Shown here one piece after another: positions 13,018 to 21,252 of a stretch of 64,000 nt of DNA. The notes below the pieces were generated by a model. That model was given only the letters and a program-made list of their open reading frames with translations. It was not told the DNA's origin and did not search any database. The DNA comes from an uncultured Candidatus Saccharibacteria bacterium (GTDB lineage Bacteria; Patescibacteriota; UBA1384; CAILIB01; JAUSJZ01): assembly GCA_964421635.1 (NCBI GenBank), contig CAYQWZ010000003.1:65712-129711 (forward strand). The letters are read 5' to 3'. Each line of letters starts with the position of its first letter. Within the stretch, counting starts at the first letter, position 1. A program made the position numbers and the translations under genes.

Positions 13018-13351
13018 CAGACAAATTTTAGGGCGAGAAGGAGAGCGGCGGGCAGCCGCTTTTTTGCTAGCCCGCCGCTACAAAATTTTACGACAAAATT
13101 GGCGAATTGCCGGTGGAGAAATAGACATCCTAGCGCAAGACCAAGATGGTACACTAATAGTGGTGGAAGTTAAGACCCGAACCGAGTCTGGTTTCGCTAA
13201 TCCTCAAGATAATGTCGATTTCAAAAAAGTGCAAACACTCACTCGCTTAGCGCGAGCGGTCAGCACTAAAAATCCTGAACGAAATGTACAAATTGATGTT
13301 ATTGAGGTTACTGGAGACAAAATTAATCATATTCAAAATATAACCGTATGA
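12977..13351 (+). CDS. yraN: UPF0102 family protein (YraN-like endonuclease fold). The start is uncertain and probably lies near 13020; the upstream part of the ORF overlaps the L19 tail in another frame.
   Basis: GREGERRAAAFLLARRYKILRQNWRIAGGEIDILAQD...LIVVEVKTR, characteristic of YraN. Confidence 0.65.
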   Translation: MLMTNQKKKKNLNSRQILGREGERRAAAFLLARRYKILRQNWRIAGGEIDILAQDQDGTLIVVEVKTRTESGFANPQDNVDFKKVQTLTRLARAVSTKNPERNVQIDVIEVTGDKINHIQNITV

Positions 13352-14823
13352 GCAAAAAAGTGAGAGTTCGTTTTGCGCCGAGCCCTACGGGCGAGATGCA
13401 TCTGGGAAATGTACGCACCATGCTATTTGAAGCGCTTTACGCTAAAAATCAGGGAGGAGATTTCATTTTACGAGTCGAAGACACCGACACTGAGCGCGAA
13501 GTCAAAGGAGCCACTAAAAAAATTTTACAATCAATGCAGTGGTTAGGAGTAGAGCCTGACGAAGGAGTAATTTTAGAGGATAACAAGATTTTGCAAAAAG
13601 GAGATTTGGGGCCTTATATTCAGTCAGAGCGCAAAAATATTTACCAGAAATTTGCTGAGCAGCTTATTGGTGAAGACAAAGCTTATTACTGTTTCGCTAC
13701 CCGCGACGAGCTTGAAGAGATGCGGCGCGAACAACAGGCTAAAAAAGAGGCGCCGCATTATGATGGCCGTTTCCGCGAGCTAGACAAAGTCGAAGCAGCC
13801 AAAAAAGCGTCTGACGGGGAGGAGCATGTAATCCGTCTGAAAATGCCTGAGAAAGGCGAGTTAAAGGTGAAAGATCTAGTATACGGCGAAATAAAATTTG
13901 ATTACAAAGATTTTGACGATCATATTATTATAAAATCTGACGGCTTGCCGACTTATCATTTTGCCAATGTAGTAGACGATCACGAAATGAAAATCACGCA
14001 TGTTTTTCGCGGCGAAGAATGGATTTCTAGCTGGCCGCGCCATGTCGCCGGTTATGAAGCTTTCGGTTGGAATCCTCCAACTTATGCGCATCTGCCTCTA
14101 ATTTTTGGATCCGACAAAGCTAAGCTCTCCAAACGCCACGGTGCCAAAACGGTTATGCAGTACAAGCAAGAAGGATATCTCCCAGAAGCGGTGGTCAATT
14201 ATTTAGTCTTTTTAGGCTGGAGCCCCAAAACGGAGCAAGAAATTTTCAGCTGGGAAGAGCTTGGCAAAGTTTTTGACTCAAAGGGAATAAACAAGGCTAA
14301 TCCTATATTCGATGAAGTCAAATTAGATCACACCAACGGATTATACATTCGTATTTTGGAAGTGAAAGATTTAGTTAGTCGAGCAGCTGACTGGTTGAAT
14401 GAAGCGGGCATTCCAAGCGGTGATGCAGATTTATTACAAAAAGCAGTGGCTACCGTGCAGGAGCGTGCCAAAACTTTGGCCGAAATTCCCAATTTAATTC
14501 GATATTATTTTGTGGAGCCAGAATACAACGCCAACTTGATTCGCTTTAAAAAACAGACAAACGAAGATTGCGCTCGGTTGTTAGACTTGGCTTCTGAAGC
14601 GCTATCTGACATAAAAGAGAAAGATTGGAACCTAGATAATATTGAAATAGCCTTGCGAGCGAGAATTGAACAGGCCTCTGTCAAAGTGGGGGAGATGCTG
14701 TGGCCCGTTAGAGCGGCGCTAACTGGTGAGCAAGCCAGTCCCGGTGCTTTCGAAGTAGCTGAAGTTTTGGGTAAAGTGGAAACAGAAAAAAGATTAAGAC
14801 AAGCTATTCAAGCTTTGAAATAG
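13348..14823 (+). CDS. gltX: Glutamyl-tRNA synthetase.
   Basis: HIGH-class motif (PSPTGEMHLGNVRT) and KMSKS (KLSKRHGA). About 490 aa. Confidence 0.9.
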   Translation: MSKKVRVRFAPSPTGEMHLGNVRTMLFEALYAKNQGGDFILRVEDTDTEREVKGATKKILQSMQWLGVEPDEGVILEDNKILQKGDLGPYIQSERKNIYQKFAEQLIGEDKAYYCFATRDELEEMRREQQAKKEAPHYDGRFRELDKVEAAKKASDGEEHVIRLKMPEKGELKVKDLVYGEIKFDYKDFDDHIIIKSDGLPTYHFANVVDDHEMKITHVFRGEEWISSWPRHVAGYEAFGWNPPTYAHLPLIFGSDKAKLSKRHGAKTVMQYKQEGYLPEAVVNYLVFLGWSPKTEQEIFSWEELGKVFDSKGINKANPIFDEVKLDHTNGLYIRILEVKDLVSRAADWLNEAGIPSGDADLLQKAVATVQERAKTLAEIPNLIRYYFVEPEYNANLIRFKKQTNEDCARLLDLASEALSDIKEKDWNLDNIEIALRARIEQASVKVGEMLWPVRAALTGEQASPGAFEVAEVLGKVETEKRLRQAIQALK

Positions 14824-17818: not shown

Positions 17819-18359
17819 ATTAGTGCTTGGTCCTATGAAGAGCGGGAAATCCTTCGCGCTAATTAACAAGTTTGCTCCGCTAGCTTTTTCAGATAAAACT
17901 TTTATGCTGTTTCAGCCCAAAATTAATGTGCGGGAAGATGAGATTAAATCTCGCAACGGGGTCAAGCTGCCAGCCAAAAAGATTGCTAAGATAGCAGATA
18001 TACTGAGTGTCAAACCGGTACCCGAAATCATTGGTATAGATGAAATCCATCTGTTTGATGGCGATGACATCGCGGCGATTGAGCAGCTGCTAAAACAAGG
18101 CCACGAAATTTTTGCTGTCGGATTAAATGTCGATTATCGGGGAAAAATGTTTGATATTGTAAAAAGTTTGCTGGAGCTTGTGCCCGATGAGGTAATTTAT
18201 TTGAAAGCGGTTTGTGAAATTTGTCAAAGTACAGAAGCAATTTACAGTCAAATTTGGTTTAAAAGCAAAGTCGTTACTGAAGGATTACCCTCTGTCGTCC
18301 CCGAAGACGGGACTTATGTTTATAAACCCGTGTGTCGAAAATGTTTTAGGAGCAACTAG
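17811..18359 (+). CDS. tdk: Thymidine kinase.
   Basis: P-loop GPMKSGKS, GIDEIHLFD, and a C-terminal zinc ribbon (CEIC...CRKC). Confidence 0.85.
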   Translation: MLKLVLGPMKSGKSFALINKFAPLAFSDKTFMLFQPKINVREDEIKSRNGVKLPAKKIAKIADILSVKPVPEIIGIDEIHLFDGDDIAAIEQLLKQGHEIFAVGLNVDYRGKMFDIVKSLLELVPDEVIYLKAVCEICQSTEAIYSQIWFKSKVVTEGLPSVVPEDGTYVYKPVCRKCFRSN

Positions 18360-18657
18360 CTTTAGAGGTTTGTTCTAGAAATTTTATTCGTCTTCTGTTA
18401 TCCATTACAACGCTATTCAGGGATTGTGAATCTTCTAGCTGGGTTGTTCGGAGTTGCTCTAAGCTCTCTTCAAGATTATCTACTTTTTTATCAACGCTAC
18501 CAAGACGAGATTCAATGCGAGCTCTCTCGGCTTGAGCATCAGTAAAACCGGCTTGCATGTCTTGACGCATAGCTTGCATATCTTGATGCATAGCCTGCAA
18601 ATCTTCATACATGGCTCGAATTAGCTTCATTAAATGTTGGTTAGTAATGCGCTTCAT
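18346..18657 (-). CDS. Hypothetical coiled-coil protein with short tandem heptad-like repeats (DMQAMHQ / DLQAMYE).
   Basis: Repetitive atcttgatgcatagcctgca-like DNA repeats. Predicted helical protein with no motif match. Confidence 0.35.
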   Translation of the reverse strand: MKRITNQHLMKLIRAMYEDLQAMHQDMQAMRQDMQAGFTDAQAERARIESRLGSVDKKVDNLEESLEQLRTTQLEDSQSLNSVVMDNRRRIKFLEQTSKASCS

Positions 18658-18705
18658 GGTGTATTAATTATACGCAGAAACAAGATTAAGAAAAGATTAA
18701 CTGAG

Positions 18706-19194
18706 TTACAACTTTTTTACCAAGCGGGTGCTGAGAGGTTGAAACTCGTTTTTTTGATAAAGATTTAGAGCTTCTTCATTGTCGTTATATACGGATACAG
18801 ATAGGTAATCGCGATTTTTTTTGATTGACCAGTCAATAGCAGTGGCAATTAAAGATTTCCCAACACCTTTATTTTGGTGTTCAGGCAGGACATATAAATA
18901 CTCAATATTTGCTTGTTTTGAACCATAATGATCGTCAGCTGCCTGAACATTATCAAATTGAACTTCGGCAAAACCGATGATTTGTTTCTCTACTGTGGCG
19001 ATAAAAATTACAGCTTTGCGATCTTCAAGTAAGCCAATATAATCACTTCGTTTAATAAAAGTTTTTACTAATCGCTCCTTAAAAATGTTCGGTAGTAACT
19101 GGTGATGATACTTTTGCCATGCACAATAAAGCCGATTAACGGCAGGATAATCTTTTTCTCTGGCGGATCGTATTTGGAAATTTAACTTATTCAT
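18706..19194 (-). CDS. GNAT family N-acetyltransferase (copy 1 of a tandem paralog pair).
   Basis: GNAT motif A region (EYLYVLPEHQNKGVGKSLIATAI). The N-terminus NFQIRSAREKDYPAVNRL is paralogous to NFSIRPAESGDYKAVNRL in the downstream copy. Confidence 0.8.
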   Translation of the reverse strand: MNKLNFQIRSAREKDYPAVNRLYCAWQKYHHQLLPNIFKERLVKTFIKRSDYIGLLEDRKAVIFIATVEKQIIGFAEVQFDNVQAADDHYGSKQANIEYLYVLPEHQNKGVGKSLIATAIDWSIKKNRDYLSVSVYNDNEEALNLYQKNEFQPLSTRLVKKL

Positions 19195-19261
19195 ACAAGC
19201 ACTTTATAGTTTTGGGTGTCCGGAGTCAACCGGACACCCTCAAGCGGAAGGCCGAGTCGAG

Positions 19262-19402
19262 CTATCGCCTGAACTTCGATCTGGTGAAGCTGGGCTTAGT
19301 CGGTCCTGGCTTTTTGCCAGGACCCTTCGGCCTTGATCTCTGATGACGATCGCGATGCGCCTTCTGACTACCAGTTGATTGGCGCCGTGGCTTATGTGAC
19401 AC
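19262..19402 (-). CDS. Small, strongly basic protein of about 46 aa encoded immediately upstream of GNAT copy 1. It has a GTG start with an AAGGTGG Shine-Dalgarno sequence and is not in the ORF track.
   Basis: Translation (V)SHKPRRQSTGSQKAHRDRHQRSRPKGPGKKPGPTKPSFTRSKFRR. It aligns with the copy-2 small ORF with many synonymous third-position differences, indicating purifying selection at the protein level. Confidence 0.55.
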   Translation of the reverse strand: MSHKPRRQSTGSQKAHRDRHQRSRPKGPGKKPGPTKPSFTRSKFRR

Positions 19403-19442
19403 TTGAATCACCACCTTTCGAAGTCAGCATAACATTAGAAAG

Positions 19443-19604
19443 ATTACAAAATTATTACGCAGAATTATTAGGTAGGTAGGATTGTAAATTGAAGTAGTTT
19501 ACGCTAAGCTAGCGGGTGAGATATTAATGCCCGGTGGCCAAATTGGTAAGGCAGCTGATTCTGGATCAGAAGATTGTAGGTTCAACCCCTACCCGGGCAA
19601 CCAA
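19443..19604 (+). repeat. Direct repeat copy 1 (about 162 bp): the tRNA-Gln upstream region plus the tRNA. Near-identical to 20497..20662.
   Basis: Only about 3 differences across the pair: a TAGG unit copy-number change, T/C at one upstream site, and C/T at tRNA position 3. Confidence 0.85.
19528..19603 (+). tRNA. tRNA-Gln (anticodon CUG) with encoded CCA.
   Basis: Manual fold gives a 7 bp acceptor stem with U1-A72, D-loop with GG, anticodon loop UUCUGGA, 5 nt variable loop and T-arm GTAGG-TTCAACC-CCTAC. It closely resembles E. coli tRNA-Gln. Confidence 0.8.
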
Positions 19605-19709
19605 ACGAAAGACCTCTGCTAATCGGAAATCTTTTCATTTGACTTCTTTTGGGATAAGGTTTGAACCGTGGTGGTTCGACTAAATAATTAACATATTTGG
19701 TGAGTATGT

Positions 19710-20201
19710 CTATTCTAAATCTTTATTTAACCGCAGGCTGCGCGTACTATAGCCATGCTCTTGCAGGAACATCTGCGCTTCTGTATTGTAGCCATACACT
19801 ATAGTCGATAATTCCGTGCCGTACCGGCGGGCCCAGCGCTCTGCTCGTTGCAGCAATTTAGAACCTAAACCTTGGCAACGGTACTTATCTTCAATGTATA
19901 GAGAGCCGATAACTGGCTGTTTGCTGGCCGTGGTTTCGTTATCAGCTGAGGTTTCTTCGATAAAGAGATAGATAACTCCGACAATGGTCTGATCGGCTAC
20001 GGCAACAAAAAGCTGGGTTGTTGATTGTTGCAGAAGTTGGTTATATGTATTGGCGGATAAGATGTAAGGTGGATTCTTCTTCAATGGGGAACGGGGCGAA
20101 CCCAAATAGTCAGCGTGGTGCAATGCCAACAACAACCGGTTAACTGCTTTATAGTCACCGGATTCTGCTGGGCGAATGGAGAAGTTTTGTTTGCCAGTCA
20201 T
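19710..20201 (-). CDS. GNAT family N-acetyltransferase (copy 2, paralog of 18706..19194).
   Basis: GNAT acetyl-CoA binding region (RCQGLGSKLLQRAERWARRYG). The N-terminus is conserved with copy 1. Confidence 0.8.
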   Translation of the reverse strand: MTGKQNFSIRPAESGDYKAVNRLLLALHHADYLGSPRSPLKKNPPYILSANTYNQLLQQSTTQLFVAVADQTIVGVIYLFIEETSADNETTASKQPVIGSLYIEDKYRCQGLGSKLLQRAERWARRYGTELSTIVYGYNTEAQMFLQEHGYSTRSLRLNKDLE

Positions 20202-20272
20202 TTTAATTTATTATACTGTTATTCACTATTAATAGAAGAGTGAGCCGCCCGTGGCGGGCGGCTCGAGGTGTG

Positions 20273-20431
20273 CTAACGCTTCGGTCTTGCTCCTGGCCGG
20301 TACTTCGGTGGCTGATAGCTCGTCCTAGTTGGTCCGGGTCCGGCACCCGGGCCTTTCGGCTTGCTGGTCTGATGCTGGTCACGATGTCGCTTCTGGTTGC
20401 CGGTCGACTGTTTCTTTCGACCGTGTGCCAT
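20273..20431 (-). CDS. Small basic protein of 52 aa, paralog of 19262..19402. Has an ATG start and a strong AAGGAG Shine-Dalgarno sequence. Not in the ORF track, which instead calls spurious overlapping ORFs in other frames.
   Basis: MAHGRKKQSTGNQKRHRDQHQTSKPKGPGAGPGPTRTSYQPPKYRPGARPKR. Followed by the strong hairpin GAGCCGCCCG-CCAC-GGGCGGCTC before GNAT copy 2. Confidence 0.6.
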   Translation of the reverse strand: MAHGRKKQSTGNQKRHRDQHQTSKPKGPGAGPGPTRTSYQPPKYRPGARPKR

Positions 20432-20496
20432 GGCCTTTCTCCTTTCTGTGGATTTCCATCTTTCAAGACGAATAGTCTTAATATATCACTGCTTAT

Positions 20497-20662
20497 ATTA
20501 CAAAATTATTACGCAGAATTATTAGGTAGGTAGGTAGGATTGTAAATTGAAGTAGTCTACGCTAAGCTAGCGGGTGAGATATTAATGTCCGGTGGCCAAA
20601 TTGGTAAGGCAGCTGATTCTGGATCAGAAGATTGTAGGTTCAACCCCTACCCGGGCAACCAA
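20497..20662 (+). repeat. Direct repeat copy 2 (tRNA-Gln upstream region plus tRNA).
   Basis: See copy 1. Confidence 0.85.
20586..20661 (+). tRNA. tRNA-Gln (anticodon CUG), second copy (G2-C71, U3-G70 variant).
   Basis: Identical to copy 1 except one C-to-T change in the acceptor stem. Confidence 0.8.
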
Positions 20663-20779
20663 AAAACAATTAAACATTCGGCCTGTCGGCAGGCAGGTAA
20701 CGAATTTTCGACGATTAGTATTCAGAAGAATTAGTCCCAGTTGGGGCTTTTTTGTTTGTCGACAAATTACTTAATGCTA

Positions 20780-20808
20780 TTGACAAAAAAGGCTCTTTAT
20801 AGTATAAA
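20780..20808 (+). promoter_or_regulatory. Consensus sigma-70-like promoter: TTGACA, 17 bp spacer, TATAAA.
   Basis: ttgaca-aaaaaggctctttatag-tataaa read directly. It drives the candidate sRNA. Confidence 0.55.
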
Positions 20809-20814
20809 AAACAC

Positions 20815-20984
20815 GGTGCAGCAGAAGCCCGAAAGGGTGTGGTGTCTACCCGCAGCCGACTAATATCAGTGAGACACCGACACGGCGCCAGATCGTTCTG
20901 GAAGTTATGCTGAAGACCCAGGACCTTGCAACCAGGTCAAAGCGGAACTTGCTCATCCCAACGCATCGGGGTGAGCAGTTTTTA
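20815..20984 (+). ncRNA. Candidate structured small RNA or cis-regulatory leader of about 170 nt. It is bounded by a consensus promoter and an intrinsic terminator. Its class is unidentified.
   Basis: GC-rich and stop-codon-rich in all frames. Internal helices include GGUGUCU...AGACACC and a GCCC-GAAA-GGGU tetraloop hairpin. It ends in the terminator UGCUCAUCCC-aacgcauc-GGGGUGAGCA plus a U-run at 20950..20984. Confidence 0.4.
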
Positions 20985-21027
20985 ATTTTAGAGAAATCCT
21001 TTATGACTACTATGATATTATTAAAAT

Positions 21028-21252
21028 ATGAAAATACAAACAGGCAAATATCGCCACTACAAAGGTAAAGATTATGAAGTAATAGGATTGGGCAGGCATA
21101 GCGAAACGCTTGAAGAGCTAGTAATTTACAAAGCTTTGTACTACTCCAAGGAATACGGAAATAACGCTATTTGGGCTCGCCCAAAGGCAATGTTCTTTGA
21201 AACAGTTGAGGTTGATGGTGAAACAAAGCCTCGTTTTGAGTATACTGGTTAA
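21028..21252 (+). CDS. DUF1653 family small protein.
   Basis: GKYRHYKGKDYEV...ALYYSKE matches the DUF1653 signature. Confidence 0.55.
   Translation: MKIQTGKYRHYKGKDYEVIGLGRHSETLEELVIYKALYYSKEYGNNAIWARPKAMFFETVEVDGETKPRFEYTG

Follow-up and report, generated by a model that had tools for sequence, protein, structure and literature searches.

In a 64,000-nucleotide stretch of DNA from an uncultured Candidatus Saccharibacteria bacterium (contig CAYQWZ010000003.1; the whole stretch is called the window below), two consecutive units of about 1.05 kb occupy positions 18706–20662. Each consists of a minus-strand gene for a GNAT acetyltransferase, an open reading frame (ORF) for a small basic protein (46 and 52 amino acids) and a plus-strand gene for tRNA-Gln(CUG). 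We find that the pairing of the small gene with the GNAT gene is conserved in other genomes. Because this pairing recurs in relatives without a tRNA, the GNAT probably acts on a substrate of its own rather than on tRNA as a toxin. The reading that we favour, with a probability of about 45%, is that the GNAT acetylates its abundant polycationic partner protein and that the tRNAs are neighbours, not targets.

Conservation of the gene pair

The order small gene, stable hairpin, GNAT of this subfamily is present in 12 of the 16 full-length family members, a locus that was assembled twice (L025/L026) being counted as one. These are both window units and L007, L008, L010, L011, L012, L014, L016, L017, L022 and L025/L026. 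The GNAT gene, encoding about 160 amino acids on the same strand, starts 47–184 nt past the stop codon of the small gene (47–101 nt except in L011), and the downstream genes are scored by a hidden Markov model of the family GNATs with E values of 1e-64 to 6e-33. The genes around the cassette vary from locus to locus. No tRNA gene was found at the other family loci examined (L007–L014 and L016–L026), and the linkage to tRNA-Gln is therefore specific to this genome. Thus, of the association of GNAT, small ORF and tRNA-Gln described in an earlier, sequence-only reading of the window, the first two elements stay together in relatives and the third does not.

Two Candidatus Berkelbacteria metagenome-assembled genomes (MAGs) in the GTDB species set carry a full-length small gene together with a GNAT. 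Judged solely from these two named MAGs, the cassette belongs to Berkelbacteria-like bacteria of the candidate phyla radiation (CPR). Identities within the family range from 52 to 74% for the small protein versus 23 to 67% for the GNATs.

The two-unit architecture of the window (small basic gene, GC-rich hairpin, GNAT, tRNA-Gln) is real, as the repeat alignment, the ORFs and the tRNA calls agree. An independent ENA assembly (L001) carries window positions 18300–21100 exactly, and L005 is 100% identical across tRNA copy 1 and both of its flanks. Since L001 and L005 reproduce the layout independently, the arrangement is not an assembly artefact. Contigs L002–L004 and L006, from the same organism, end within the 165-bp repeat block (window positions 19457–19581), which indicates that the duplicated locus will often be split or collapsed in MAGs.

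Coiled-coil proteins of about 100–160 amino acids, belonging to no specific family, adjoin the cassette in the window (18346–18657, minus strand), in L007 (421–819, minus strand) and in L016 (2088–4077, minus strand). L016 has three such paralogues, and the three loci are otherwise different.

A protein family missed by gene callers

We considered the possibility that the small ORF corresponded to a structured RNA rather than to a protein. In pairwise comparisons of nine family genes, 55% of the pairs differ at the third codon position, versus 23–25% at positions 1 and 2. RNAalifold found no conserved mRNA structure in the small ORF (−2.2 kcal/mol), and in Rfam the tRNAs alone reached the gathering score, sub-threshold matches in the region being far below it. 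The codons for GPGxxPGP form an inherent inverted repeat, and their third-position partners do not co-vary in the alignment as read by eye. The codon-position pattern, the lack of a consensus structure and the absence of an Rfam match besides tRNA rule out a structured RNA. Given this codon-position pattern and the presence of relatives at about 20 other loci, the small ORF is a real, conserved and unannotated protein family.

Its members are 45–52 amino acids long, rich in lysine, arginine, proline and glycine, with an isoelectric point (pI) of 10.6–12. They share the consensus MAHGPKKQSTGS.K.HRD.HQ...PKGPG..PGPTK..Y.PPKFR and follow the pattern M-[AST]-H-x2-K-[KR]-Q-S-T-G ... H-Q ... P-K-G-P-G-x2-P-G-P-T-K. 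Residues H3, Q8-S9-T10-G11, K14, H20-Q21, P25, G27-P28-G29, P32-G33-P34-T35 and K43 are invariant, and position 2 is Ala, Ser or Thr in all full-length proteins. The two window paralogues, small1 and small2, are 56–59% identical. The start of small1 is most likely the GTG at 19400–19402, which is preceded by a strong Shine-Dalgarno-like site, GAAAGGTGGTGA. In the AlphaFold model, the small protein is non-globular with one short helix (predicted template-modelling score 0.19), and most of its length is predicted to be disordered. At E ≤ 10, the small proteins matched no Pfam or NCBIfam model, save a chance-level match of the Prosthecobacter relative to PF17696 (E 0.28). A suspected N-terminal resemblance to eL29 or S5 received no support from Pfam scans.

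The small gene was skipped by gene callers in the source contigs, and no called gene on record has the exact product of small2. Neither a word-based search with small2 as the only query nor a first contig scan with both window paralogues gave relatives, and broader alignments were needed. Three relatives were obtained from a back-translated pattern scan of metagenomes, and seven more from a protein database searched with a five-sequence profile; the family is also present in Logan assemblies. Only 13 cluster representatives matched among 1.84 billion proteins in an exhaustive HMMER search.

Shorter, N-terminal relatives occur in the GTDB species set in Verrucomicrobiota, Bacteroidota and a Pseudanabaena MAG. 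Basic ORFs of about 45 amino acids in Prosthecobacter (L018:5001–5138), a Verrucomicrobiales MAG (L020:5001–5141) and Ginsengibacter (L021:5001–5135) have only the N-terminal half-motif (M.H..KKQSTG..KG.RD.HQ), followed by unrelated basic tails, and no adjoining GNAT. In Pseudanabaena (L019:2171–2350), the motif lies inside a 104-amino-acid ORF with a signal-peptide-like start.

Relationships of the acetyltransferases

Both window GNATs match Pfam Acetyltransf_1 well above its cut-off of 20.7 bits (GNAT1, 61 bits, E 1.7e-16; GNAT2, 50.4 bits, E 3.2e-13). The acetyl-CoA pyrophosphate-binding loop, Q/R-x-x-G-x-G/A, reads QNKGVG in GNAT1 and RCQGLG in GNAT2. The AlphaFold2 model of GNAT1 has a mixed alpha/beta GNAT fold (mean local confidence, pLDDT, 82), with template-modelling scores of 0.73–0.79 to GNAT structures.

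Searches of PDB sequences with the single GNATs (phmmer) gave matches to PaiA, 3jvn, SpeG, DpA and AAC. The family profile matched 3jvn (3.6e-23), PaiA (6e-16), BH1408, VipF, Ard1/Naa, RimI, DpA, SSAT2, AAC(6') and Hpa2, the Ard1, Naa and RimI chains being matched at E values of 1e-9 to 1e-6. Foldseek, used with the GNAT1 model, retrieved the same set, Hpa2 among them. By sequence and fold, the GNATs thus lie closest to PaiA/SSAT-, AAC(6')- and Nα-acetyltransferase-like enzymes. The best-ranked NCBIfam models (PaiA, AAC(6') and RimI) all scored far under their cut-offs: the PaiA equivalog NF053587, which is the top NCBIfam model for GNAT1 only, gave 54.9 bits for GNAT1 and 27.1 bits for GNAT2 against a cut-off of 250, and the RimI model TIGR01575 gave 37.3 and 21.4 bits against 86.4. 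The GNATs are therefore not robustly Rim-type, the alternative that the sequence-only reading had set against its analogy with toxins.

That analogy would make the cassette a type II toxin-antitoxin (TA) pair, in which the GNAT acetylates an aminoacyl-tRNA (perhaps Gln-tRNA-Gln), the small protein is the antitoxin, and the tRNA gene supplies or buffers the target. Like the GNAT/DUF1778 systems TacAT, AtaRT, KacAT and ItaRT, which sometimes occur in several copies per genome, the cassette has a small gene first, then a GNAT of about 160 amino acids. It is present twice in one genome, and its GNATs evolve fast. TA-like bicistrons outside the true TA clade, with short upstream ORFs devoid of DNA-binding domains, have also been described (PMC9177977). 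However, GNAT toxins are defined by a partner with a DUF1778/ribbon-helix-helix (RHH) or DUF4065 domain and by a distinct 'true TA clade' (PMC9177977). Here, even at E ≤ 10, no DUF1778, RHH or DUF4065 domain was matched in the partner, which is predicted to be non-globular. Nor do the GNATs lie near the toxin clade, as judged from the sequence, profile and fold match lists: TacT, AtaT, KacT and ItaT were absent among the 29 and 6 phmmer matches (E ≤ 0.01), the best 60 profile matches and the best 50 Foldseek matches. Furthermore, the two genes are uncoupled, with 47–184 nt and a strong hairpin between them. The presumed antitoxin shows far stronger conservation than the presumed toxin, and other phyla have it without the GNAT. 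The other family loci have no tRNA, and PADLOC gave no match for either the GNATs or the small proteins, which speaks against membership of a defence system as well. These observations make a TA pair very improbable, and the functional tie to tRNA that had been suggested by analogy with TacT, AtaT and ItaT finds no support.

We also considered that the GNAT might be a polyamine or small-polycation acetyltransferase of the PaiA/SpeG/DpA type, the small protein being the product of an independent, co-located gene rather than a substrate. PaiA, DpA, SSAT2 and SpeG are indeed the best relatives of named function, both in sequence and in fold. They are of similar size and share an acidic substrate loop, the β3-β4 loop being acidic in most GNAT members of the family (e.g. 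IEKDEGDEW, IEDADDDDY). In line with an independent gene, GNAT1 may be transcribed from a promoter of its own past the hairpin, and at other loci the small protein is found without a GNAT. Yet the scores are far under the PaiA equivalog cut-off, and these enzymes have no dedicated small-protein partner gene. Moreover, a housekeeping polyamine enzyme is not expected right behind this one 45-amino-acid gene in 12 independent, otherwise non-syntenic loci. We regard this explanation as unlikely.

Hairpins, promoters and translation signals

The small1–GNAT1 intergenic region folds with −25.4 kcal/mol (z −3.39) and the small2–GNAT2 region with −24 kcal/mol (z −5.91). A stem-loop follows the small stop codon directly at every GNAT-linked locus, the weakest being that of L008. 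The hairpin sequence is not conserved, and a U-tract is usually missing.

Shine-Dalgarno (SD) sequences are rare in the window: the 62 window ORFs of at least 100 amino acids have a mean duplex energy of −1.3 kcal/mol, and no more than four of them reach −6 kcal/mol. The two small genes have values of −8.5 (small1) and −8.7 kcal/mol (small2), and a GAAAGG(T/A)GG element precedes the small gene in most relatives. No SD was found at the GNAT genes. Leaderless GNAT mRNAs, considered on this ground, were dropped because most window genes lack an SD.

The G+C content at third codon positions (GC3) is 0.53–0.83 in the small genes versus 0.21–0.49 in the GNAT right behind; the window maximum outside the locus is 0.48. 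This excess was measured in both window small genes and in L007–L012, L014, L016, L017, L022 and L025, at a locus GC of 0.35–0.54. It is missing from the GNAT-less relatives in other phyla and is weaker in L023. A codon-supply coupling of the small genes to tRNA-Gln(CUG) was also considered, CAG making up 7 of their 8 Gln codons versus 33% in the window, and was rejected because the general GC3 excess explains this bias and the codons are too few. The strong SD-like site, the high GC3 and the hairpin past the small gene suggest that the small gene is highly expressed and the GNAT gene poorly.

The TTTACA-17-AATAAT site is the only consensus-like promoter facing small2, and its spacer consists of the TAGG run. 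The two hexamers are separated by 13 nt in unit 1 and by 17 nt in unit 2, (TAGG)3 at 19470–19481 corresponding to (TAGG)4 at 20524–20539. This indel might give the two operons different expression levels, as in a slippage-type expression switch.

Across the window, 16 of these 62 genes carry AGTA[AG] ('AAGTAA') 12–18 nt ahead of the start codon, versus 4.2 ± 1.9 in shuffles, and 18 carry it somewhere within 20 nt. The enrichment suggests that this lineage uses a non-SD signal for initiation.

Recent copying or conversion of the tRNA block between old cassettes

The window contains exactly two tRNA genes according to ARAGORN, both for tRNA-Gln(CUG) and both on the plus strand. Each copy folds into a cloverleaf with anticodon CUG, a U1-A72 first pair and an encoded CCA, and the isotype that had been assigned from the letters is corroborated by ARAGORN. 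The Rfam tRNA model scores the copies at 62.7 and 59.6 bits. A gene for GluRS is present at 13348–14823; genes for GatA, GatB and GlnRS were not found among the other large ORFs scanned in these 64 kb. CAG accounts for 33% of the Gln codons of the window, so that a UUG isoacceptor must lie elsewhere in the genome.

The tRNA genes belong to a direct repeat (19443–19605 and 20497–20663, start-to-start spacing 1054/1058 bp), of which the first 34 nt occur at two sites only in the window, with a chance expectation of 0. Pairwise alignment agrees with the near-identity of the tRNA and about 85 bp upstream that had been described before: the copies differ by a TAGG indel (3 versus 4 units), one upstream T/C change and, at position 3 of the tRNA, a C/T change. 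The identical block ends abruptly on its borders, the neighbouring 5' untranslated region (5'UTR) being only about 70–75% identical and the coding DNA saturated with changes.

By comparison with the block, the protein-coding genes are old paralogues, as had been proposed: the GNATs are 29% and the small proteins 56–59% identical, and an orthologue pair exists in L015. GNAT1 is about 30% identical to all family members except P0002 (58%). The nearest relative of GNAT2 is the L010 GNAT (40%), and small2 and the L010 small protein have a C-terminal PGA[KR]PKR tail in common. The 1-kb contig L015 carries a fragment of a GNAT2 orthologue (49% identical to GNAT2, 28% to GNAT1) and, 22 nt past it, the GNAT1 orthologue P0002 (58% to GNAT1, 23% to GNAT2), with no tRNA, promoter block or small gene between the two GNATs (L015:1–937). 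As L015 keeps the GNAT2-then-GNAT1 order, the paralogy is older than the split from that lineage. GNAT1 has a host-like composition (GC 35%, GC3 0.29), and GNAT2 is at the top of the window range (GC 47%, GC3 0.49). The difference in GC between the GNATs noted in the sequence-only reading is therefore genuine, its own estimates having been about 38% and 48%.

The N-terminal extension of P0002 (MINHQSRKSTQS) resembles the N-terminus of the small protein (MSHKPRRQSTGS), and may be the remnant of a fused small gene.

Since 85 non-coding bases are about 99% identical beside a 5'UTR of about 70–75% identity and saturated coding DNA, the block of about 165 bp comprising the control region and the tRNA was recently copied or gene-converted between two old cassettes. 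The alternative is that purifying selection alone kept the two blocks of an old duplication nearly identical. This would be understandable for tRNA genes, which are strongly selected, and for a block that carries the promoters of both divergent genes. It does not account for 85–89 non-coding bases with a single substitution, sharp borders and diverged surroundings, nor for the old GNAT paralogues of L015, 22 nt apart without the block, and we give it hardly any credence. Thus, of the earlier suggestion that the tRNA-promoter part was homogenised by gene conversion or selection, recent copying or conversion is retained and selection alone is not.

It might also be argued that unit 2 is a small island inserted site-specifically at tRNA-Gln, with the repeats as attachment (att) sites, as tRNA-bearing direct repeats flank GNAT2 and small2 and the GC3 of GNAT2 (0.49) tops the window range. 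In tRNA-targeting integrative islands, an integrase is encoded and att is a 3' tRNA segment. Yet no integrase or other mobility gene is present in or beside the unit, the repeat is a whole tRNA plus 85 bp upstream, and L015 has the same GNAT2-then-GNAT1 order without a tRNA. No relative was found in viral contigs, which argues against both an island and a phage origin. Insertion of an island is thus most improbable. Recent copying or conversion recalls the concerted evolution or segmental copying of duplicated tRNA genes, in which two nearby copies are near-identical including their promoter region. It differs in that the homogenised tract sits between very old, diverged protein cassettes and carries their promoters.

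Features of the locus

Table 1. Coordinates of the features of the two units in the window.
Feature	Position	Strand	Evidence
GNAT1, 162 aa	18706–19194	-	ORF, Pfam Acetyltransf_1, AlphaFold2 GNAT fold, composition
Hairpin 1, 10-bp GC-rich stem, no U-tract after; between small1 and GNAT1	19214–19239	-	Fold energy, same position in relatives
small1, 46 aa, pI 12, begins MSHKPRRQSTG, GTG start	19262–19402	-	ORF, codon-position test, SD duplex
Repeat block R1, 85-bp divergent control region small1/tRNA-Gln, (TAGG)3	19443–19527		Direct repeat, alignment
tRNA-Gln(CUG) copy 1, U1-A72, CCA encoded	19528–19603	+	ARAGORN, Rfam RF00005 62.7 bits
GNAT2, 163 aa	19710–20201	-	ORF, Pfam Acetyltransf_1
Hairpin 2, 10-bp GC-rich stem, 8 nt past small2 stop, weak U-rich tail	20242–20264	-	Terminator-like site, fold energy
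small2, 52 aa, pI 11.9, begins MAHGRKKQSTG, ATG start, SD AAAGGAG	20273–20431	-	ORF, alignment to small1, codon-position test
Repeat block R2, 89-bp control-region copy, (TAGG)4	20497–20585		Direct repeat, alignment
Promoter-like site facing small2, TTTACA-17-AATAAT	20518–20546	-	Consensus scan, 10/12 matches
tRNA-Gln(CUG) copy 2, C3 -> U (U3·G70)	20586–20661	+	ARAGORN, Rfam 59.6 bits
Terminator-like hairpin and T-run past tRNA copy 2	20733–20748	+	Terminator scan

Beyond unit 2, the plus-strand stretch 20780–20985 comprises a TTGACA-17-TATAAA motif (read by eye) and then an untranslated, GC-rich (56%) stretch of about 170 nt. It ends in a terminator-like hairpin with a T-run (20949–20978), directly upstream of a DUF1653 gene (21028–21252) and a cupin gene. 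With no Rfam match and a fold z of −2.06, it is a candidate riboswitch or leader, or small RNA.

Discussion

The enzyme-substrate reading can be put as follows. The small protein would be made in large amounts and would bind a polyanion such as RNA, the ribosome or DNA. The hairpin would end or stabilise the small-gene transcript, so that little GNAT would be made. The GNAT would acetylate its partner with acetyl-CoA as the donor, the site being either the N-terminal Ala, Ser or Thr exposed once Met is removed or the invariant Lys14 or Lys43, and acetylation would lower the charge and the binding of the partner according to the metabolic state. The tRNA genes would be neighbours sharing a bidirectional promoter region, not targets. 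For the partner, the role of a substrate or ligand that has a cellular target of its own fits better than that of an antitoxin, because the partner is the better conserved of the two proteins, because it exists without the enzyme in other phyla, and because the nearest relatives of the enzyme act on polycationic substrates. The presence of a hairpin-bearing spacer also sets the cassette apart from the GNAT/DUF1778 systems.

Two groups of enzymes offer partial precedents. The acetyltransferases described in PMC4964394, which act on polycationic, disordered, lysine-rich proteins, belong to the same structural neighbourhood as the GNATs of the cassette. Their substrates are promiscuous or encoded elsewhere, whereas here the candidate substrate is encoded directly upstream, in a conserved pairing. 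RimI, RimJ, RimL and archaeal Ard1 acetylate the Nα of small basic (ribosomal) proteins that start with Ala or Ser, to be compared with the Ala, Ser or Thr at position 2 of the small protein. The present GNATs miss the TIGR01575 cut-off, Rim enzymes are not encoded beside their substrates, and the partner found here is not a known ribosomal protein.

Several observations weigh against the proposal that the GNAT acetylates its partner. Adjacency is the sole direct evidence that links the two proteins, and four full-length members (L009, L013, L023 and L024) have no GNAT. The divergence of the GNATs is uncorrelated with that of the small proteins across nine pairs (Spearman 0.11, p 0.52), for which reason co-divergence of the pair was dropped as an argument. 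Electrostatic complementarity between the GNAT and the small protein was likewise abandoned, as the pI of the GNATs ranges from 5.0 to 9.8 across members and gives no consistent signal. In the L008 GNAT (L008:270–752), the acetyl-CoA loop is degenerate, QEQKVC replacing Q/R-x-x-G-x-G, and this enzyme may be inactive. As for expression, it is uncertain that the hairpin acts as a terminator, most copies lacking a U-tract; GNAT1 has a promoter-like site of its own at 19229–19201; and no conserved mRNA structure accounts for the GC3 excess of the small genes. As for the repeat, the data do not distinguish gene conversion from the recent insertion of another copy of the block.

A more elaborate version of the proposal draws on rpsU (bS21) of Flavobacteriia, a small basic protein gene with almost the only strong SD in an SD-poor genome (PMC9976891, PMC13000453). 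The window is similar in that SD sequences are rare and yet both small genes have SD-like sites among the strongest, but in sequence the small proteins do not resemble bS21. In this version, the small protein would be, in Berkelbacteria-like CPR bacteria, an abundant and so far unrecognised ribosome- or nucleoid-bound polycation whose occupancy is set by the dedicated GNAT, with bS21-like anti-SD autoregulation and a control region shared with tRNA-Gln(CUG) for a common translation-capacity signal. We consider it quite unlikely as a whole.

A toxin acting on tRNA would have been striking, and the evidence goes against it. What the locus does offer is a plain example of a promoter-plus-tRNA block that was recently copied or converted between two paralogous operons of ancient origin. 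The new element is a small, strongly conserved and unannotated basic protein family, missed by gene callers and tied to its own GNAT in CPR bacteria, the cassette pairing an acetyltransferase with a candidate protein substrate to which it is genetically linked. Since the genomes of CPR bacteria are reduced and the enzyme-plus-partner cassette is nonetheless conserved, and present here in two copies, it probably serves a core process, for instance the control of the charge of a nucleic-acid- or ribosome-binding protein.

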